A stretch of DNA of 63,231 nt, counting the filler, from Rhabdomonas costata (Eukaryota), in NCBI GenBank assembly GCA_019059605.1. It is 50 parts of 50 records of this genome, joined end to end, with 100 filler letters (N's around TTAATTAATTAA, not from the genome) between each part and the next. Parts side by side here need not be neighbours in the genome. Positions count along the whole stretch, not along the records: positions 6,348 to 7,518 come from JAHMHO010025343.1; positions 7,619 to 8,785 come from JAHMHO010025344.1; 48 more parts are not named here. One strand, given 5' to 3'. The notes beneath the pieces were generated by a model. That model was not told the DNA's origin. It searched no databases and saw nothing but the letters and a program-made list of their open reading frames with translations. Shown piece by piece: positions 7,316 to 54,384 of this stretch (its first letter is position 1; every line of letters starts with the position of its first letter). The translations under genes were made by a program, and so were the position numbers.

Positions 7316-7350
<35 letters not shown>

Positions 7351-7620
7351 GAGGGGTTTGTGCTGCTGCTGCTGCCTCTGCTGCGGCGATTTGGCTCATG
7401 AGTATAAAATGGAGAGTTCGACTGCCCTGTCAACAGGACATGCATCAGGATCAGTCCCTCAATGCGGCGGACGAGTTTGTTTGCCGACTTCGGGTTCTCC
7501 AAAACATCCCCAAAAAACNNNNNNNNNNNNNNNNNNNNNNNNNNNNNNNNNNNNNNNNNNNNTTAATTAATTAANNNNNNNNNNNNNNNNNNNNNNNNNN
7601 NNNNNNNNNNNNNNNNNNGG

Positions 7621-8785
7621 GGTTTTTGTTATCATTATCAATTAATGAAAAATAATATTGAACCAGAAGTAAAAATATACAAATATGTAATAATAGATAA
7701 AAATAACACATCATTTGAAATTGATTTGTATAAAAATGCTGAACTTAAATATATTTCTATTAAAAAAATAGAACGTGCAATGAAAGAAGTTGCAATTGAC
7801 TGTCCTTTAAATTAAAATAAAAATATATTTAAATCCGAAATTGATAAACATAAGTCATGTATCACAATTGATAAATATAATAGAAAAGAAAGAAAAAAAT
7901 TATGTCCTGCAATATGTGATTATGTTTCATGTAATTTTACTTGTTCAGATAAGAAATTAAATTTAGAATATTATGATAAAGATAGTAATATTTATAGAAA
8001 TATATCAAAAAAAGATTTAGATTATTCGACTTTTTATGGATCATTTATTACAAATGAAATTATAAATATAAAAAATAAAATAAAAGAAATATTTTTGTTT
8101 AAATATTCATATACATTAGAAGAAATTATTGATTATGTTTCTATTATTTATAAAAATAAAAAAAATTTATTTGATAAATTTTTCGTTTTAAAAGCATTGT
8201 CTGAATTAATGCCTGTTGGTGAAAATAGTATTAATAATTTCAAAGATTATATTTATGATAAATATAATATTGCTGGTTATATTAAATTTATACATAATCA
8301 TTATGTATTTCAACCATTAACTGAACATTTAAATATTTCTATGTATTATAGAAAAGGTGAACATTTACAAGATACATTTATATCTCAATTAAATTTGAAA
8401 GATTATATAAAAATAAAATATTCATATAATGATGCAAATATAAAAGACACAGTACAACAATATTTATTCGATATAAATTATTTTTCAAATCGTGAAGAAA
8501 ATAAATATATTGGTATAATTGATAATGTTTATAACAAAAAAACAAAAGAAACAAATGATATATTTAAAATTAGAGAAAAAAGAAATACAAATATTACTAA
8601 AAAAAGAGGAATAGGTATCACGACTTTTAAAGGAACAACATGTATAACTGTACAACATAAAAAATATTTGAATGATTTAGCTACTTTTTTAAATATTAAA
8701 ATAAATAATAAATCAACAAAAGAAAGTTTATGTGATTTAATTAAAAATAAAATGATGATATTAGAAAAATATTCATCAACAAAAC
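7621..8785 (+). pseudogene. Giant-virus (Nucleocytoviricota, Mimiviridae-like) VV D6/D11-family SF2 helicase, C-terminal part, with one in-frame TAA at 7813-7815
   Basis: About 17-20% GC by line counts; intronless; one frame spans the contig: FCYH...PEVKIYKY...YKNAELKYISIKKIERAMKEVAIDCPLN*NKNIF...CPAICDYVSCNFTCSDKKLN..YYD...DYSTF...KALSELMP...NNFKDYIYDKYNIAGYI...YVFQP. Confidence 0.8.
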
Positions 8786-9772
8786 NNNNNNNNNNNNNNN
8801 NNNNNNNNNNNNNNNNNNNNNNNNNNNNNTTAATTAATTAANNNNNNNNNNNNNNNNNNNNNNNNNNNNNNNNNNNNNNNNNNNNGTCGTCGAGGCAGCC
8901 CAGCCGAAGCCTTTGATCCACCGCCAGTATGGGCGCGAAGCGCGAAGAGGAGGGAGGGAGGGGGGTCGGACTGCTGCTCCACCATACATTTTTTTGGTGT
9001 GTGCATCACACCGTTTGGGGTCCTGTGCCCCATCTCTATTGATGGGAAAGCTTCAGCTGTGTTTTTGGCCGTTTTTTTTCCTGTTCCAATTATTGTTGTC
9101 AATATGACCCGCTTTACATCAAAAGTGAGACTTTTGACATCCAGTCAAGAAGCATGTAAAGCAACAACGCACCGAAGTAAACTGGGGGAACACATGAAAG
9201 TCCGCACAGGTTGCTTTTAGTAAGCAATTCTTTTGACTGTCGATTGCCATGAGTCAGGACAAAGGGGGCCGGTGACTCGAACCAAAGACCAGCACCATAA
9301 AGCGGTTGTTTTTATCGGATGGTGAGTGGTGAGTGGTGGGTTGCAGGACGTTTGTAGTTCTGGAGGGGACGGTGGCCGGGCAAGTGGTGCGCACCCGTGA
9401 GGTACCCAAGAACCCACCCCAGGGCCGTCCCGAGTCCGCTGGGGGTGCGCTTCCTGTGGATGGAGGCATGCGCCCCCGCGGCAACGTGCCCATTTTGCAC
9501 CCTTTGCCTTTAACAATCTCGCCCATTCCATCGCCATTCCTTCAATTCCCTCGAAGACCCAGCAACGACAGAAAGCACGGTGTCTGGCGAACAAGGGGGG
9601 CTTCAGCAAGAGGATCCTGCGCTCAGGACACAATGGCAGGACCGTGATGTGACGATGGCCTTCAGGGCTTTATTTGAGCGGGCGTCACAGCCTTATCCCG
9701 GAGATGATAACGGACCTTTGTGTGAGCCCCAGAACTGGCGCCCTATATTTGCGGCTTGCGTTGCAAGGCGAG

Positions 9773-20190: not shown

Positions 20191-21109
20191 NNNNNNNNNN
20201 NNNNNNNNNNNNNNNNNNNNNNNNNNNNNNNNNNTTAATTAATTAANNNNNNNNNNNNNNNNNNNNNNNNNNNNNNNNNNNNNNNNNNNNGTGGTGGGTG
20301 TGTTTGGTTGGTGGTGGGGCCAAGAAAGAAGGGGTCATTCGCCTTTCCCGTTGCGACAGGAGTATAAACCCTTTCCTACCTTGCAGTCACATACCGTTGC
20401 GACGGAAAAAAGGCACTGCGCCTCTATCTCTGCAAACTTCACCCTACAGTCACATAATAACCACCCATTCGACTTACTCCAATTCCATTGAAACGACAGC
20501 GTGGAAGGGGTCAGCCTCCGCAACAAAAGTTGAACCACCAAGAGACAACGTTGTGTCCTTGGAAACCTGACCAAGCGGAAGCCAACCCTGCCTGAGGGGG
20601 GGCGGTCCCTTTGGGTACCTGAGCACTGCGGGGCTGGGAGAGGGTGCTGAAGTTGAATACGGTTAAAATCGTCCCCAAAAAGCGTGAAAGATAAAAAGAA
20701 AAGGTGCGTCAACCTTGTGCACAGACGCGGCAAGACGCAAGTGACCACTACAAAAGAACACTTTCCAGGGTGTGAAAAAAACAACTGCCTGCAAATCTTC
20801 CTCTGGAATCCCATGTAACACGGTGCCACCCTCTGACCCCTTCTTTTGAAGTCCTCAGCCATGTATATTCATGGCACCAACATTCCTTCAACCTAATTTC
20901 ACACCCTGAGGGGAAAATTCCCGCCTTGTTGTCCCAGCAAGTGATCCCATACAGATTGCTCAGAAGGACGAGAAACGGAAGCTACCCCGTTGATACCGTG
21001 CACCCGTGTTCAGTAGACAGTGAGCACGAAGTGGAAACGCTGCGAGGCCGGGAAGCAGGACCAACAAAATCGAGCAGTGGGAGAAGAGGCCGCGCACACT
21101 GGCAGGTAC

Positions 21110-23989: not shown

Positions 23990-24140
23990 NNNNNNNNNNN
24001 NNNNNNNNNNNNNNNNNNNNNNNNNNNNNNNNNTTAATTAATTAANNNNNNNNNNNNNNNNNNNNNNNNNNNNNNNNNNNNNNNNNNNNTGTTGAGCGTT
24101 CCTAGCGTCTCTCTGCACGACGCAAATCTCACTCCGGCAG

Positions 24141-24747
24141 CTTTCACTCCGTGGTAATAACCTTCCGATACGTTGATGGTCGATTCAGAGCGGTCGCCAA
24201 ACCCTCAGCCCGCTCCCTTGCACAGCTGCAGCGCGTGTACCACCGCTACATCGAAGTGGTCCACGAGCAGGTCACTGCCCACCGCGGGATGGTGGACAAA
24301 GTGCTTGGGGACCGTGTGCTTGCCCTGTTCAACGTCCCTCGGCGGTGCAGCCGAGCGGAGTACCGTGCGGTGAAGTGCGCGCTGGAAGTGCTGGCGCAGT
24401 GGGACAGGGCACAGCTCCTTCCTCTCAACCACTCTGCACCAGTCTCCTTGCCCAGTGGGGAGATTTTGTCGCAGCGTGGGCTGGCCTATGCTGTGGCCAC
24501 CCCTGCGATGGCCTTACCCTCGACTGCAGAGAGCTTTCCAGGCGCGGAGGAGGTCGACGTTCCTGTGCTGCTGGGGCTCCGCGTGGGCATCGCGAGCTCC
24601 CCGGTGAGCTTTGGCAACCTCGGCAGCGATGTAGTGAAGAGGTTTGTGGTTGTTGGGGAAGCTGTTGGGCAGGCGGTTGCGGTGCAGAAGGTGGCGTGCA
24701 AGGCGCTTGGGGTGCCTCTGCTGATCACGGAGGTCGTCGCGAAGCAG
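24141..24747 (+). CDS. Class III adenylate/guanylate cyclase-like domain, catalytically degenerate
   Basis: HRGMVDKVLGDRVLALFN..AVKCALE..LRVGIASSPVSFGNLGSDVVKRFVVVGEAVGQA..LLITE; exon ends AKQ|GT. Confidence 0.85.
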
Positions 24748-24809
24748 GTAGAACTGCCGCAAGCACGGCTTTCCACTTGTGTCGTGAGGTTGTAATGCCT
24801 TTAAGTTTC

Positions 24810-24944
24810 TAATACCCCGAAAGTAAGAACTTTGTACGTGACATTTCAGTTAGAGGTGTTTCTTGGCTTATTTTGATGGCATTGGTCCTTTGCGGCATCC
24901 GATGATGAGCTGTGGTTAAAAAAGGCTCAATTTCGGATGTTGCC
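24810..24944 (+). repeat. Interspersed repeat, copy B (intronic; see 9773-9903)
   Basis: Collinear similarity to 9773-9903. Confidence 0.75.
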
Positions 24945-27575
24945 TTGTGAATTGGTGGTTTCTGGCAGATTTGCCCAGAATCTTTTTTTGTAGTGGATTG
25001 GTTTTCGGGTGTTTGCTTTGTTTCTCATCAGCTTTTCTTCTTTGACAGGTCGACTGCGAGGTCCAATGCCTCCCCGCTGCGGTGCTGCGCTACGCGTCGG
25101 CAGATGTGCTGCCCGTCTACCGCCCCACCCGGGAGTTCCCGAACTCCGTAAAAGATCAGGTGTTGTTTGCCATTCACTTTCTTCGCCGACCTGCATGCCA
25201 CTGAGACCCTAGACCACTGTTCTGTGATCTCACCAAACCCCAAACACACCCACCACNNNNNNNNNNNNNNNNNNNNNNNNNNNNNNNNNNNNNNNNNNNN
25301 TTAATTAATTAANNNNNNNNNNNNNNNNNNNNNNNNNNNNNNNNNNNNNNNNNNNNGTGGGGTGGGGGCTCGGCGCTTTTGTTCCTGAGGTTGCACGGTA
25401 CGCTGAGGTTGCACGGTACGTTTGTGTGGTCTCCTTACTTCCCAAGGGTTAGTGCGGTTGCCGCGTTGCTGGTGTTACCCACACCCACACGTTTCCAAGC
25501 ATACTGCTTACGTGTTACGTAGAACCGCGGGGATGCTCGTTGGCCTCGTGGTGGAGCCCTGCAAAATGGAAGTGCAGGTTCGCGGCGTCTGCAACGACAC
25601 GCCGCGAAGCCGATCGATTATTTTCGTGAAGATTGTGGGAACCTTTTGTCTCTTCTCATAAGGATACCAGTAAAGTGTACGCTGACGAGGCGAGGGCCCG
25701 TTTACCTTCATGGATATGGATGCATGTCCTTGGGCTCCGTTTGGGGTGCAAATGCACCCCATCTTTACATCTTACGCGTGTGTCAGTGCGACTTGTTGTT
25801 GCTGTTATTTTGCTTCAGTGCATCGTCATTTGTTTTTTCATTGAGATCTGTGGTGGGGAGATTTGCCCACGTTTTCGATTGGGTTTGCGAATGGCTTTCG
25901 TCCGTGTGGAAATTGATGAGCTTGACCCCTTGGTCGTCAAAAACACCCCGGACTCGGGCCGGCGGGCCGCGGCGCTGCACAGCTTTTCCAAGAGCTTTGC
26001 GTTTCACTTCGGGCTGAGGATGAGAGGCATTCCCTGCGCCCCAGGCTTCTGCCCCATCCGAGCCACGGACACCGTTACCTCCGGCCTTCGACAGGTGAAC
26101 CTCTTTTTTACACCATCTCTTTGGTAAGCTGACGAGAATGCTGAAATAGCCGGCTTCGCATGGGGTACCTCATTTCGATTGTCGTTGTTTCGAGGTCAAG
26201 CGGCACCACGATTTTTGCGGAGAGGGTGCCGGCGTCCTATACCCCCACCTACTCTGCTTTTCGAAGTCGGTGAGACCTTTTCAAGCGCTGCATTCGAGCG
26301 GGAATATGTTGTCAGCTTCCACCAGGCTTGACATTGCATTCGTTACTGTCAGCGTCTGGTGCTTTCCTGTGTGCTCCGAAGCAGCATAAATTCGGAACAG
26401 CATTGGTTAAAAAAGACATTTGTCTCCTCCCTTTTCATCCTCGGGCCCAGGTCGCTTCGGTTTTCCCACAACTTTCGGAAATTACTTAGTGGCGAACGGG
26501 TACAAATACGTGTAACCCAACCCNNNNNNNNNNNNNNNNNNNNNNNNNNNNNNNNNNNNNNNNNNNNTTAATTAATTAANNNNNNNNNNNNNNNNNNNNN
26601 NNNNNNNNNNNNNNNNNNNNNNNTGTTTGTTGTAGTACAAGTCTTGACATTACAGGATGAAGGAAGCTTTTGGGACATGCGGCGTTTATGGTGGAGAAAG
26701 ACATAATAATATTCGGCTCTGCGCTCAGTTTTTGTGCCCCACGTGTCGCCACTTTGGGATCCTTTTTTTTAAAATGTACTGTCGGTAATTGGCTGCCCCC
26801 CTGTGAAATAGTGTGTCTTCTGTGTACGAGCGACGTATTTCTGCAGCATGCCAACCCAGTTGTCCGCACTGCCCGACCCAATCCTTTGGCCGCCGGGGAT
26901 GGCTCTGGTTCGCGCTGGGTCCTAAGGCTCCTTCATCCACAGACTTTTCTCTAAACATGTTTCCTCGTGTGGAAATGTTTAGAAGCTGATCTTCATGGTT
27001 CACGCTTTTGTGTCTGCCGCGTAACTGCTTTTATGTTCAGTCTTGCGTGCTTTTATTCTTGCGTGTTGGGAATGTTCCGTCTCCACATAGGCGGATAGCA
27101 CGTGTTGGGGGGGAACCGTTGATTGCATGCTTGTCTGTGTGCTGAGGACCTTGAGAGGCCATCTGCCTCTCAAGGCTTCAAGATTGTGAATGTCACTGTG
27201 ATCTGTTTGTGCTGTGCGAGACCAAATGGTAAATATTTTTTCTCACAACTTTTTCCGGTTGCCGAAAGGTTTGGGCGGTGGAATGTGCAGTTACTTGGAG
27301 AACACTTAAGTCGTTCGAGTGGCGGCTTCGTGTAAAGTCGAGTGTCGATGTTAATATGCCTCTTAATTGTATTTTTTTTTCGCGGAAAGCTGTCTTCCCG
27401 CATTTTTTTTCGCATCGCAGATGCGTCGCTTAAAAAGTTGCTAAAAGTGCACTGTTGTATGTACCTTGACAGCTATTAGCGCAGTGATTGCGATTCGTAA
27501 TAAGAACTCAAACTGCAATTTGAGAGCAGTTTACCCCCTGCCCCATTCTTTACGACCTCACCTTCCCAAGATCGA

Positions 27576-46887: not shown

Positions 46888-47952
46888 CTGCACGGAGAGC
46901 TGAGACAGAGGAGGGTTGTACCACGATTCTTGGAAGTACAGCGCCTGAATGGAAATGAAGCTGGGAAAGGGGCCCACAGTCGCCGTGTTGGGGGTAAAGA
47001 ATAGCCATACGAGCGCGTCGGTGTTGTGGTGAAACGTGACTCCAGAAAGAGGGCATGTCCACCACCCAGCGGCGAGACTACAGTTAATGGAAGCATTTTG
47101 ATCGTCAGCAATGTTCCAAGATACCCCTCCGGTCACAGCACTGGCAGAAATGTTGACTTTCTCTCCCCCGACACTCGTCCCTGTGGACCTCAGAATGAAG
47201 GAAACTCGCACGAGCTGTCCCGACAACTGCGGAGCAGGTGGGAAAACATTCACTCCAAATGAGGTGGGAAGCATGCTGGGCTGCAGCGGATTGTGCTGGA
47301 TTGCCTCCTGCTGGGGCTGAAGGCGGCCGATTGAGATGATTCCAGTCCGCACAGAGTAGCTGACGAACTGATCCGCGGTGAACGTGACGTTCATCAGGAG
47401 CGGGCCCGAGGAGCTCAGGATGGGTGTGAAAAACAGGTACACCACGGGCTTCGGAACGTTAGGCCCCAGAATTGGAACATTACTGATGTCACACACGAAG
47501 TGCAGCCCCTCCTGCGGGCACGAGATCCCCTGGCTGGCGTTGGCGGTGAGGTGCCAGCTAACAGGCCCGACAACAGCCAGCGCGGGCACATAGACCTGCT
47601 CGCCCCCCACCGTGCTGTTGCTGCTGAGGATCTCAAAACCAACCGTGGCCAAATCACCAGAGAGCAAGTAGGGCTGGTTGGAGAACCATGGGCGAGGGTC
47701 CACGTGCAAAATACCCAAAGCGCGCAGAGGGGAGGAGTGTACCAGTGAAGTGAACTTCTCCGCCTCCCAGGTAAACTTCACGATGCCCAGAGCACTATAT
47801 TCCAGCGTGAGGTTGAAACGCACAACAATTGGGGTAGAGGAAAGGTTTCCCAGAACAAGATCACAGGCATAGAACTCGTTATCAGGAAGAGCGGGGCACG
47901 TCCCGTTGGAAGTCGAAGTGTCCCAGGTGGCGTTGGGCTGCACTATGGCCAT
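46888..47952 (-). CDS. Extracellular beta-rich protein with repeated Cys-paired Ig-like (DUF11-like) modules
   Basis: Uninterrupted ORF over 350 aa with three S/C..C.....C.L modules, repeated STVGGE.V / VSW / LFFTP segments and many sequons. Confidence 0.6.
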
Positions 47953-50687
47953 TGGGATGAGGACTCGCAGCCATGCTGGTTGCGCTGGGCCGGGATTTCC
48001 CCAGCTTGCAGAAAGAGGGAGGGGGAATCCGACCCCTCGCGGTCGCGGTCCCTNNNNNNNNNNNNNNNNNNNNNNNNNNNNNNNNNNNNNNNNNNNNTTA
48101 ATTAATTAANNNNNNNNNNNNNNNNNNNNNNNNNNNNNNNNNNNNNNNNNNNNTTGCGGTGCATTTTGCTTCCCTATAAAGTAGGCTGTTCAACTTCCAC
48201 ACTGAAGGAGAAGGGACGCGCGAAGCGACACAACGCGGAACACGGTAAAAAGATTGGTGGAAAATTCCATGGGCGCAGGATGTACGTTGAGCGTGCACAA
48301 TACGTCGGGATATTCTCATGTGCTCAAACAAGATGTTTGATCCGTCTTGAGCAAGGGGGCGTCAGAGGGCGTTTATCGCGCAGGACTGCGCCGCCACGGC
48401 ATTACAGTGCACAAACGCACAGCCCTGATGCTCAAAAGAAGCTAAAGGAGACCGTCGCTTTCAATTTCACAGGTCGCCAGCTGGCACTCAGCGCAGATTT
48501 TTGGGTCGGGAGGTCGCAATGCGGTTGTGTACCCAATGTACCCAAGTCTCCCTGCTTCAAGTCGACCACTGAAACGCAGGCTGCTGGATCAAGAAGTAAA
48601 AAGCAACCGCCAAAGGCAGAATGGGCGCATATGCAATACTGACTCAACTCACCAGAAACCAGTTTATGCCAAATCTTCTCACCAAGTTCATTGGCAGGTG
48701 GAGGACTGGCCCACGCCCAGACCGGCTTTTTATATATGCCACTTCTCCAGGAAGCACGTTTGGCTGTGAAGCAAAATGTATGCTGTGATGTCACTGTCCA
48801 TCCCATTCCCGAAGACTGGCGAACAAATACCGCATTGAACAGAGATCTGTACAGCTGTACAAGGCCGAAGAGGGAAGACTTTGCCAACCCCTCAAGCCCA
48901 CGAGAACATGATCGAGTGAGGAGGGGTCTCAAGAAAGACATCAAGAGCAGCTTTCAACCGCTGGAGAAAGGAAAGATAAACCCCCAACCCACACAGCAGT
49001 CAAAAAGGGTGCGCAAGAACCCCACGGTGCATTGCCATCCCAAGCGGGGTTCCCGGCAGCGCCGCGAAATTTCTGGCAAACAGGGAAGAAACGGCAAGAA
49101 GACACATCAAGACGAGCGACAAGCCTGTGGTAAGCCACAAGGAAAACCACACACAGCTCAGCTCCCGCCGGGCCCATTGGAGCCACCGTTTCTCAACACA
49201 CCTAAAACGCTACACACCACACCGATAGCACCTCGTTGCTCGATCACAAGCGGGAGAAAACGCACCGCCTGGAGTCCTACCCCCCACCCTTTCATGCAAT
49301 CGCTCTACACACACAACCCNNNNNNNNNNNNNNNNNNNNNNNNNNNNNNNNNNNNNNNNNNNNTTAATTAATTAANNNNNNNNNNNNNNNNNNNNNNNNN
49401 NNNNNNNNNNNNNNNNNNNGGAGACAAAAGGTCTAAAAAAGGGCCGGTACCGAACGACCACGCTTCGACATAACCGACCATTTGCCTTCATTTATTAATT
49501 TGGGATGGCCCAACTTGCGCATGATTTAAACGGAGGGTTCCACAAATAGCTCTGCTTTCCGGCATCCCACGGGGTGAGTTTGCAGAGATCCTGCTTTGTC
49601 GGGGCAGCGCTTGTGACTGCTCCTTACGGTTTTCGTCGTTTTTCTAGCTGTAACCGAACAGCTAGAAATTTTTTTTGTGCGCATTTCGGACCCCATCAAA
49701 AAGGTTAATATATTTTTCATCTCTATCGTCTATGCTTTACTTTCGCGCGTTAGAACTTGGTGCGAAGCAACCCTTGGGCAACGTGCAAAGCGCCATTTCG
49801 AATTGCGCAAAATATGATCGGCCGCAAAAGTGATAAGCCAGGGGCGTATGCCTGCAACCCCAGGGAGTCAGGGTCAACCAAGTCACACCTTTGCGCCCAG
49901 CGTATCTGTCTGCCCGTTGATGTGGATCCCCACATGGCCTGTCCCTACTGTGCATTGAACTAGCAGCAATTGTTACGATGACGGTTCAATCCATATGGCA
50001 TCCAACAATCCCAATCAAAACCGATACTCCTGCGCCTTGTGATTCGCTGAGGCGCGCAGGCCTTGGCCCTCTGTACCCAGAAAAAGATACACGGGTAAGA
50101 AAAAGCTCATCACCAGGAGTCCTAGTAGCACGCTGATTCTGCCAAACATACACAGGCCTGGAAGTACTCAGCTGGGCACACACACACACAAAGCAACAGG
50201 AAAGCATTCGACCGCATCGTCCATTTCACAGTACGTTCTTGGAGAGGATAACCCAGGGCTTCAGTCCCGGCCGACACCAAGAGGCGAAAACCTCTAAGTC
50301 GGCGCGGCATCGCAAAAGTTCTGCGCCACAAACTTGCTAAACTCAACAAGATCGACGGTCTGCTGCAGGTTTAGCGTGAGGTAGAGCTGGATCGCGAAGA
50401 ACTCCCAAAAATCCACTTTGCTGCAAACGCACCCCATACCCATCCGGAAATCATCTGCTGTCCACATGCACCTAACATGAATATCTGTATGAAGCAAAAG
50501 CAAAAAGATTGTCCCCAATAAAAATGGCCATGAGTCACATTGCAGCATACCCCTTCAACTACTCTAGCAGACCCAACACAACCACNNNNNNNNNNNNNNN
50601 NNNNNNNNNNNNNNNNNNNNNNNNNNNNNTTAATTAATTAANNNNNNNNNNNNNNNNNNNNNNNNNNNNNNNNNNNNNNNNNNNNGT

Positions 50688-53218: not shown

Positions 53219-54384
53219 GTGGTGGGTGTGTTTGGTGTGGTGTTGATGCTGACCGGCGAGTTCTTGGCGAGTGGCATGCTGATGTGGCTTGCGGCTTAGC
53301 TGCACTGGCCAGGGTATATTCTTCACTGGGCAAATTGGAAGAAGCTGAGAGATTTTTTGAGAAGGCCTTGAGAATAAAGAGGCGGTGGTTCGGCAGCGAG
53401 CATCCCGAGACAGCGGCCGCTCTGAACATTTTTGCTGATTTCCTCATGACTGGAGGGCGTGAAACAGAAGCCGAGCCTCTACTTGTGGAAGCATTGAGGA
53501 TTCGGAGACTTCCCTCAAACAGAACCAATATTAATTCCGCCATGGGCGAGGCAACGTGCTTACGAAGTCTTGCGGCTGTTTATCGAACTCATGGGAAGTA
53601 TGCAGAAGCAGAACCTTTAATACACGAGGCTATGGCCATTCAAAGTCAGCAGGTTGGTGCCGATCACCCCGAATATGCCTTTAGCTCGAACGTTCTTGGG
53701 GACATTTACGTCAAGCAGGGCAAATTTGCGGAAGCGGAGGCGGAGTTTGAGAAGGCCTTGAGGATTTGGAAGCAGAACGGTGGTGTCGATCACCCCGAGG
53801 TGGCGTTCTGTCTGAACAGGCTCGGGGTTCTTTTCAGCACGCCGGGCTACAGCCTTGGGGCTACCTTCGGTCCTCAAGGCAATCTAGCAGCAGCGGAGTG
53901 GCATTTGCAGGAGTCCTTGAGAATATACGGAAAACACCTCGGCAGTCATCCAACGGTGGCGCAATGTTTACGCGATTTAGGGTCCGTGTACCTGAAAAGG
54001 GGCAGGTTTGCGGATATGGAGTCCCTGTATGAGCAGGTTTTGGGGATGGAGCGGCAGCTCTATGGCATCGGTGACCACCCCGCTGTCGCGAGAACCCTGA
54101 ACGTAATCGCATCCATTTGCAGCAAGCAAGGGAAGTATTCCCATGCAGAGCCACGCTTTGCCGAAGCCCTGAAGATTCAGAAGCATCTGGGCAGCGAGCA
54201 CGTTGACATGGCTATAACCCTGCTGGATTACGGGTTGCACCACGGGAGGCAAGGTAAACACGCCCCCGCTCAGCAGCTAATAGCAGAGGGTTTCGGGATT
54301 CTGCGGAGCCACTTTGGCAACCACCACCCACGTTTGGCGCTATACTTGCGGGAAGTAGCGATCGAGTTGAGCAACCAAGGCAAT
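53219..54384 (+). CDS. TPR-repeat protein (kinesin-light-chain/nephrocystin-3-like ~42-aa TPRs), partial
   Basis: Contig-long ORF with about 9 repeats of G.EHP.vA..LN.La.vY..QGK..EAE.L...AL.I. Confidence 0.92.

Follow-up and report, generated by a model that had tools for sequence, protein, structure and literature searches.

Poxviruses open their early promoters with a vaccinia-type early transcription factor (VETF), an ATP-driven translocase that is packaged with the viral polymerase, and proteins related to its small subunit, D6, turn up in the much larger genomes of the mimivirus-like viruses. Most giant viruses of marine and fresh waters have, as far as we are aware, no known host, and one of the rare direct clues to who infects whom is a viral marker gene amplified along with a single cell. 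For the Euglenozoa there is little to go on: a 2021 review gives Bodo saltans virus, of the Mimiviridae, as the only DNA virus documented up to that time (PMC8061765), and the genome of Euglena gracilis is described as carrying giant endogenous viral elements of the Asfuvirales, with erosion (PMC12455990). Here, we have tried to understand a single small contig, at positions 7619-8785 of a 63,231-nucleotide stretch of the assembly filed under Rhabdomonas costata (GCA_019059605.1), which encodes the C-terminal third of a D6-like helicase of the giant-virus order Imitervirales and carries one stop codon within its reading frame. What is this gene, how did it come to be in this assembly, and what should one make of the stop?

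The window (by which we mean the whole stretch analysed, 1-63231) is an artificial chain of 50 contigs, each 1,154-1,180 bp long, joined by spacers of the form N/TTAATTAATTAA/N (for example 7519-7618 and 8786-8885); adjacency within it is therefore uninformative on linkage, and the TTAATTAATTAA linker carries stops in all frames. The contig at 7619-8785 is 1,167 bp long and has 17.9% GC against 45.3-62.8% in the remaining 49, just the disparity for which the initial annotation had picked it out, and its GC content stays at 14-21.5% in 200-bp windows along its full length. Four features of the contig are needed from the start:

7621-8784, plus strand: coding frame of 388 codons, open at both contig ends, the C-terminal third of an Imitervirales superfamily II (SFII), D6-like (VETF small subunit-like) helicase
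7813-7815, plus strand: lone in-frame TAA, codon 65, directly after a conserved DCPLN motif and in a variable column
7619-7630, plus strand: run of 12 bases, G/T only, that probably stems from an amplification primer and extends into codons 1-3, whose residues may be non-native
8777-8785, plus strand: run of 9 bases, A/C only, that closes the contig at its 3' end, the complement of a G/T primer-like run

The frame holds a single stop, exactly as first described (some 388 codons, TAA at 7813-7815 in the context AIDCPLN*NKNIF), and no frameshift. When the contig's own bases were shuffled, the 2,000 random versions had 44.1 in-frame stops on average and at least 26 in every case, and the five other frames of the contig hold 23-69; a near-open frame of this length is far beyond chance. 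Its GC content at third codon positions (GC3) is 6.7%. The fragment is also intronless, as had been claimed, because the frame aligns collinearly with full-length relatives and no large gaps open up.

For protein searches, the frame was translated through the stop, with an X in its place (P0001). Among longer proteins, of about 1,100-1,650 residues, this query found 588 matches, the best of which, P0002, is 52% identical over 99% of the query (E 8e-111); an exhaustive HMMER search of 1.84 billion representatives returned 351 matches with the same protein at the top (E 2.7e-111, 54% identity), aligned at its residues 644-1032. Proteins of near the query's own length gave full-coverage matches of at most 46% identity and one partial match of 54% over 36% of the query. 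Members of the family cover 99-100% of the query at 41-54% identity, and the fragment spans approximately residues 642-1033 of about 1,120, so that some 640 N-terminal and some 90 C-terminal codons are missing from the contig (related genes extend 73-102 codons beyond the end of the match). The named relatives include Catovirus CTV1, Hyperionvirus, Mimivirus LCMiAC01 and an uncultured virus on a 650-kb contig, and some strong matches sit on contigs of up to 650-800 kb. The initial annotation had proposed a viral origin, and the outcome that would have told most plainly for another source was looked for and did not occur: neither BLAST nor HMMER gave a cellular best match for the fragment, and all strong matches are SNF2/D6-like helicases, the named ones viral with one exception. 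That exception, P0073, is a family member of 1,143 residues on a 454-kb contig, which its source labels as a Thermoplasmata archaeon bin; it is probably a giant-virus contig that was misbinned. A viral contig collection scanned with P0001 and P0002 yielded no relative.

The full-length relatives carry SNF2-related (SNF2-rel_dom), ResIII, DEAD and Helicase_C domains, and a family profile built from 12 members finds, in the PDB, the small subunit D6 of vaccinia VETF (7amv_W, E 1.7e-21) and then the vaccinia nucleoside triphosphate phosphohydrolase I (NPH-I) D11 (6rfl_Y, E 2.7e-16); cellular SNF2 remodellers match that profile at E 4e-4 or weaker, and in the helicase core only. To this extent, the original assignment to the C-terminal region of D6/D11-type helicases has the family right. 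The motifs on which it relied are another matter: the contig begins three residues past motif VI (..GRAIRxCSHY), the helicase core (Walker A/B and motif VI) lies outside it, and the fragment is therefore without a helicase or catalytic motif. (An intein, PF14890, often with LAGLIDADG, lies directly after the Walker A GxGKT in 61 of 120 listed relatives by a count made by eye, in alignment columns 130-595; P0004, P0029, P0038, P0069 and P0077 are examples.)

The genomic setting of the relatives and their composition point the same way. In one relative's locus (L003, on a 106-kb contig of 19% GC), the gene adjoins an mRNA capping enzyme, a NUDIX protein, Erv1/Alr, a FYVE-PI3/4-kinase and topoisomerase IB, a neighbourhood that is typical of giant viruses. 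Related genes range from 18.3 to 38.7% GC, with GC3 down to 4%, and it is because they reach such values that the 17.9% GC and the GC3 of our contig fit an Imitervirales-like group. Trees were made with FastTree on 146 sequences and with IQ-TREE (LG+C20) on 42, and both place the query as sister to the pair P0002/P0003 (52-54% identity), with support of 100 and 99, respectively. A wider clade of 22 rows in the FastTree result (support 95) was rejected, since the IQ-TREE mixture model did not recover it; only the sister grouping with P0002/P0003 is robust. As far as sequence comparison can tell, it is well supported that the contig carries part of a core gene of giant viruses, from a lineage without a close sampled relative.

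What might this part of the protein look like? No Pfam family matches the fragment at E <= 1, and 42 members of the C-terminal alignment hit scattered weak families only. By itself the fragment has no sequence match in the PDB either, and with a profile of just the C-terminal region no PDB chain scores below E 0.1, the best, at E 0.16, being an unrelated glycosyl hydrolase. An AlphaFold2 model made from a 78-sequence alignment reached a mean predicted local distance difference test score (pLDDT) of 78.5 (an earlier model from 22 sequences was poor, with a pLDDT of 57), and three parts can be recognized:

7801-7944, plus strand: cysteine-rich module with six invariant cysteines (C61, C80, C95, C99, C104, C108) in alignments of 12, 22, 42, 78 and 146 sequences; pLDDT 69-87
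8029-8325, plus strand: predicted winged-helix domain, residues 137-235; AlphaFold2 pLDDT 85-95
8506-8769, plus strand: C-terminal domain, residues 296-383, with a long beta-hairpin, a conserved KKRG..G..KG..C stretch and a pair of helices; pLDDT 78-94 except in the loop 323-338

Five of the six invariant cysteines fall 3' of the TAA, and the module that they make up may bind metal or form disulfides. The best VIA-align match of the winged helix is the winged-helix B (WHB) domain of a cullin (8caf_E), with 76 of 79 residues aligned at a root-mean-square deviation of 2.6 A and a Z of 8.4 (Z values around 8 stand only moderately above background); next come the winged helices of Rpa2, E2F-DP, Hel308 and Lhr, with Z of 6-7. 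The C-terminal domain, with invariant residues G298, F315, R329, G338, C341 and C371, gave no named fold for residues 296-383.

Taken as a whole, the model finds nothing in the PDB by Foldseek at E <= 0.001 (7amv_W comes up at E 0.95). Among the predicted viral structures of BFVD it has 19 matches at E <= 0.001, and all of them are D6-like or SNF2-like helicases of giant viruses: Hyperionvirus leads at 3.4e-35, and there are several from Pithovirus (annotated "VV D6-like helicase") as well as Marseillevirus LCMAC102, Solivirus, ChoanoV1 and Pyramimonas orientalis virus, the Pithovirus, Marseillevirus, Solivirus and ChoanoV1 proteins having E values of 1e-4 to 5e-8. African swine fever virus (ASFV) D1133L (6.6e-3) and vaccinia VETF-s (0.037, probability 0.82) are weaker. 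Judged from these models, the C-terminal architecture is common to the D6-like helicases of giant viruses, and the link to poxvirus D6 is weak at this end. By analogy with poxviruses, we would suggest that the complete protein translocates along DNA at the expense of ATP and assists the viral RNA polymerase in opening early promoters. The fragment is the noncatalytic C-terminal third of this SFII/D6-like helicase, the counterpart of the small subunit of the poxvirus early transcription factor.

The stop is real in the assembly. We compared its column across 145 relatives (13 of the 158 BLAST-matched proteins were omitted, as they do not span query residues 15-370), and the residues found there are R in 36, L in 23, Y in 19, V in 15, I in 15, M in 13, Q in 10, K in 6, T in 3, F in 2 and H, S and A in 1 each; the two sisters, P0002 and P0003, both have Y. 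At the level of codons, we used the best 80 of 210 related metagenome loci, in 78 of which the terminator can be read (two genes run off the locus):

Codon at the stop site, 80 loci: CAA 23, AAA 8, TAT 7, TTA 6 and GAA 3, which makes 47 of 80 one base from TAA
Gene terminators in the related loci: TAA 69 of 78, TGA 5 of 78, TAG 4 of 78
In-frame stop in the homologous region: 1 of 80 loci, L050 (1208-2419), with TAG at codon 157 of the match

TAA is, in other words, the ordinary stop of these relatives. The initial annotation had derived the codon from TAT or TAC by a single change, and this route is plausible, but it is not the sole route: CAA, AAA, TTA and GAA also occur at the site, and a C-to-T change from CAA to TAA is equally open. 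As to how often such changes arise in the laboratory, multiple displacement amplification (MDA) is reported to err at 1.9e-5 per base at a gain of about 3,000, and PCR-type single-cell amplification at roughly ten times the rate of MDA (PMC4138190).

Amplification has left its mark on the whole window. That our contig starts with G/T and ends with A/C as its neighbors do was noticed at the outset, and the counts over all 50 contigs bear it out: runs of at least 8 bases are found as G/T at the start of 29 of 50, as A/C at the end of 36 of 50 and as both in 19 of 50, and G/T runs of at least 8 begin at 1.6% of internal positions. Amplification of whole genomes with G/T-rich degenerate primers fits such a pattern of ends, and, as the contig at 7619-8785 has these primer-like ends in common with its neighbors, it underwent the same kind of amplification. 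The runs are typically of about 10 bases and extend up to 29 (examples are 20291-20319, the 3' end of 24090-25256 and 53219-53245). In each contig, about 10 bases at either end may be non-native, primer-derived sequence left in the assembly; residue 1 of our fragment is G, where R is invariant in the 145 relatives. The contig is probably a single amplicon, unextended by overlapping amplicons, which suggests few template copies.

If the gene were decaying, one might look for the damage elsewhere. Of the 46 columns that are at least 98% conserved in the 145 relatives, the query agrees at 44, with one miss inside the primer run and one elsewhere; at the level of at least 90% it departs at 15 of 111 columns. 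When the relatives are treated in the same way, each left out in turn, their departures at the 98/95/90% levels have a median of 0/1/3, a 90th percentile of 1/4/10 and a maximum of 2/10/19. The query thus appears to sit at the divergent end of the normal range, and its raised divergence could come from a long branch without sampled members, from extreme AT pressure or from a slight relaxation of constraint. Composition does not drift toward the host along the contig at 7619-8785, and there is no virus-host junction within its 1.17 kb, all of which is coding, at 14-21.5% GC, and bounded by primer-like runs.

How, then, did the gene get here? The reading that we prefer, and to which we give about an even chance of being correct, is that of a nonintegrated virus with a trivial single-base change. 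On this account, the contig would be one amplicon of DNA from an extremely AT-rich, uncultured, mimivirus-like giant virus of the Imitervirales; its source would be one or a few particles or genomes, ingested by the cell, attached to it, co-sorted with it or caught in an early infection, and the viral DNA would have been amplified in the same reaction as the cell. The TAA would stem from a single error in amplification or assembly, or from a mutation private to this genome, in a position where most relatives need just one substitution to reach a stop; it would signify neither decay nor recoding. A loose virus is favored beforehand, because viral DNA in single-cell assemblies comes more often from particles or infection. 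A number of observations nevertheless weigh against it, and they deserve to be set out together. Substitutions that create a stop make up 6.9% of all single substitutions in the frame, and an in-frame stop interrupts this region in just 1 of the 80 related genes from metagenomes; since a stop made by error is rare a priori and relatives with a stop are as scarce as this, we estimate that the stop favors a decaying copy by a likelihood ratio of several-fold. The primer-like runs at both ends of an unextended contig fit the low template number expected of a single-copy genomic locus, and a low template number argues against a heavy active infection. The query also departs at 6 of 78 columns that are at least 95% conserved (the median of the relatives, left out in turn, is 1 and their 90th percentile 4), and in the IQ-TREE result its branch measures 1.0 against 0.73-0.81 for its sisters from the common node, about 1.3 times theirs; both the departures and the longer branch could reflect relaxed constraint. 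These are the same observations that speak for a young endogenous insertion of giant-virus DNA in the nuclear genome of the amplified cell, with the TAA as the first disabling change in a gene that had been released from selection, a reading that we regard as a serious possibility, if a somewhat doubtful one. It would account for a real-looking nonsense codon in a core gene when 79 of 80 related metagenome genes have no stop in the region, for a low-copy-looking amplicon with primer-like runs at both ends (as in 19 of the 50 contigs), and for the somewhat raised divergence at conserved columns and the terminal branch about 1.3 times that of the sisters, and it can call on reports that giant-virus DNA is widespread in protist genomes (PMC13524828) and on the euglenozoan precedent of Euglena gracilis, though from Asfuvirales (PMC12455990). 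Set against this, the contig has no host-like sequence and no frameshift; its GC3 is still 6.7%, amid neighboring contigs of about 51% GC; 44 of 46 near-invariant columns are kept; its divergence is within the range of the relatives (maximum 10 of 79 columns at the 95% level); and a viral Pfam family occurs in 0 of the 132 open reading frames (ORFs) of at least 110 residues on the other 49 contigs.

Every reading other than the loose virus and the endogenous copy we hold to be improbable, even when all are taken together. Perhaps the most attractive is that the TAA codes for Gln, Tyr or Glu, or is read through, in a virus adapted to a variant-code host. The site is variable: 10 of the 145 proteins have Q there and 19 have Y, and 23 of the 80 loci have CAA. 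Published giant-virus metagenome genomes are reported to be annotated better with TAA as Gln ("code 106") or with code 6 (PMC13524828). The idea of TAA as a sense codon in giant viruses is therefore not new, but the contig at 7619-8785 gives it no support. It has one TAA in 388 codons despite its GC3 of 6.7%. Were TAA Tyr, about half of the Tyr codons should be TAA (across seven families, A-ending codons number 63 and T-ending codons 55), and we observe TAT 32, TAC 1 and TAA 1; were it Gln, TAA should exceed CAA (compare TTR 25 with CTN 1 for Leu and AGA 7 with CGT 2 for Arg), and we observe CAA 7 and TAA 1. E is absent from the stop column in all 145 proteins. TAA terminates 69 of 78 related genes, and three plausible host ORFs, 1,032 codons in all, contain no stop of any kind. 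A sense TAA in this contig is unlikely, and we would put its chance as very small. Smaller again, in our estimate, is the chance that the gene is naturally split, with a helicase-core protein that ends at ...DCPLN and a C-terminal part made separately. Four relatives, P0130, P0134, P0138 and P0145, do encode the C-terminal part alone (413-521 residues, on contigs of 45-800 kb), but these short forms start 60-100 residues upstream of the stop, in or just after the helicase C domain, and none starts at the stop site; past the stop, some 130 codons and five invariant cysteines go by before the first in-frame ATG. (The four short ORFs could themselves be a natural split, the effect of an intron or intein, or genes broken in assemblies.) Least probable of all, to the point of being nearly negligible, is an AT-rich cellular genome, of a bacterium, an organelle or another eukaryote, with a related helicase. 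The Thermoplasmata label of P0073 is what could be cited for it, but that 454-kb contig stands among giant-virus relatives and is probably misbinned, all other named relatives are giant viruses, the genes next to a relative are giant-virus hallmark genes, and cellular SNF2 proteins match the family profile's helicase core only, at E 4e-4 or weaker, and not the region that is present here.

The other contigs of the window are of a different character. They average about 51% GC, are depleted of TA and are mostly without recognizable genes; Pfam families (TPR, IQ and Macro) occur in 3 of the 132 ORFs of at least 110 residues, and an Rfam search of the window gave no match; two look-ups in a protein atlas were likewise uninformative. 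That they are eukaryotic is plausible, and they may be euglenozoan. Two of their ORFs stand out:

46888-48051, minus strand: ORF of 388 codons that fills its contig, with two similar halves of about 190 residues; no Pfam family
53221-54384, plus strand: ORF of 388 codons, all of it TPR_12/TPR_10 repeats like those of kinesin light chain or nephrocystin-3; the sole strongly recognizable host gene in the window

The product of the first (P0122) has no homologue among 5.8 billion protein clusters, searched at lengths of 213-679 residues only, and is probably a lineage-specific, surface-type host protein. In trinucleotides, the host contigs have TAA at 0.79%, TAG at 0.61% and TGA at 1.48%, and counting TGA as sense lengthens the mean longest host ORF from 180 to 259 codons; a sense TGA in the host was rejected all the same, because the lengthening comes from the depletion of TA in host DNA, which makes TAA and TAG rare, and TGA occurs in the "open" frames at a random rate. 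A frame at 48154-49317 with a single TGA was considered as a second broken gene and dropped, as its translation looks noncoding. The high-GC contig next to ours in the chain contains a (GT)n microsatellite of about 16 units, at 7319-7351.

Why should one care about 1,167 bp? No representative in a library that draws on about 15 billion proteins is more than 54% identical to the fragment's lineage in this region. If the viral DNA is truly tied to the cell, by infection or by integration, the contig would add a virus-host pair, and if it is an endogenous copy, it would record a recent integration of Imitervirales in the lineage of a poorly sampled protist and provide a direct link between virus and host. 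A single amplicon of 1.17 kb cannot carry the claim of a virus-host pair as it stands. Its practical value is that of a pointer, a reason to screen the full assembly for low-GC contigs and to go through the reads.

Of the systems with which the contig can be compared, two bear on its setting. Bodo saltans virus is a giant virus of the mimivirus family that can be likened to the source of our contig by family alone. The elements described in Euglena gracilis (PMC12455990) belong to the Asfuvirales, are large and are demonstrably integrated, whereas here we have one 1.17-kb contig without a junction. Among named systems, the closest likeness is to the proteins of Catovirus CTV1 (P0077, named in UniRef as "Early transcription factor 70 kDa subunit") and of Hyperionvirus (P0069, "SNF2-like helicase"), which are collinear with the fragment over all 388 residues at 44-47% identity and whose six invariant cysteines and most of whose other invariant residues the fragment keeps; unlike them, the contig holds the C-terminal third only, and with an in-frame TAA. 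Vaccinia NPH-I, D11 (6rfl chain Y), is the second-best PDB match of the family profile, through its helicase C domain and more weakly than D6, and nothing in the fragment matches it. Vaccinia D6 itself (7amv chain W) has 637 residues against about 1,100-1,650 in the mimivirus-like proteins; its helicase core matches the family profile well (E 1.7e-21), and the model of our fragment matches it weakly (E 0.037 in BFVD, 0.95 in the PDB). We infer that vaccinia D6 and the mimivirus-like helicases have a function in common.

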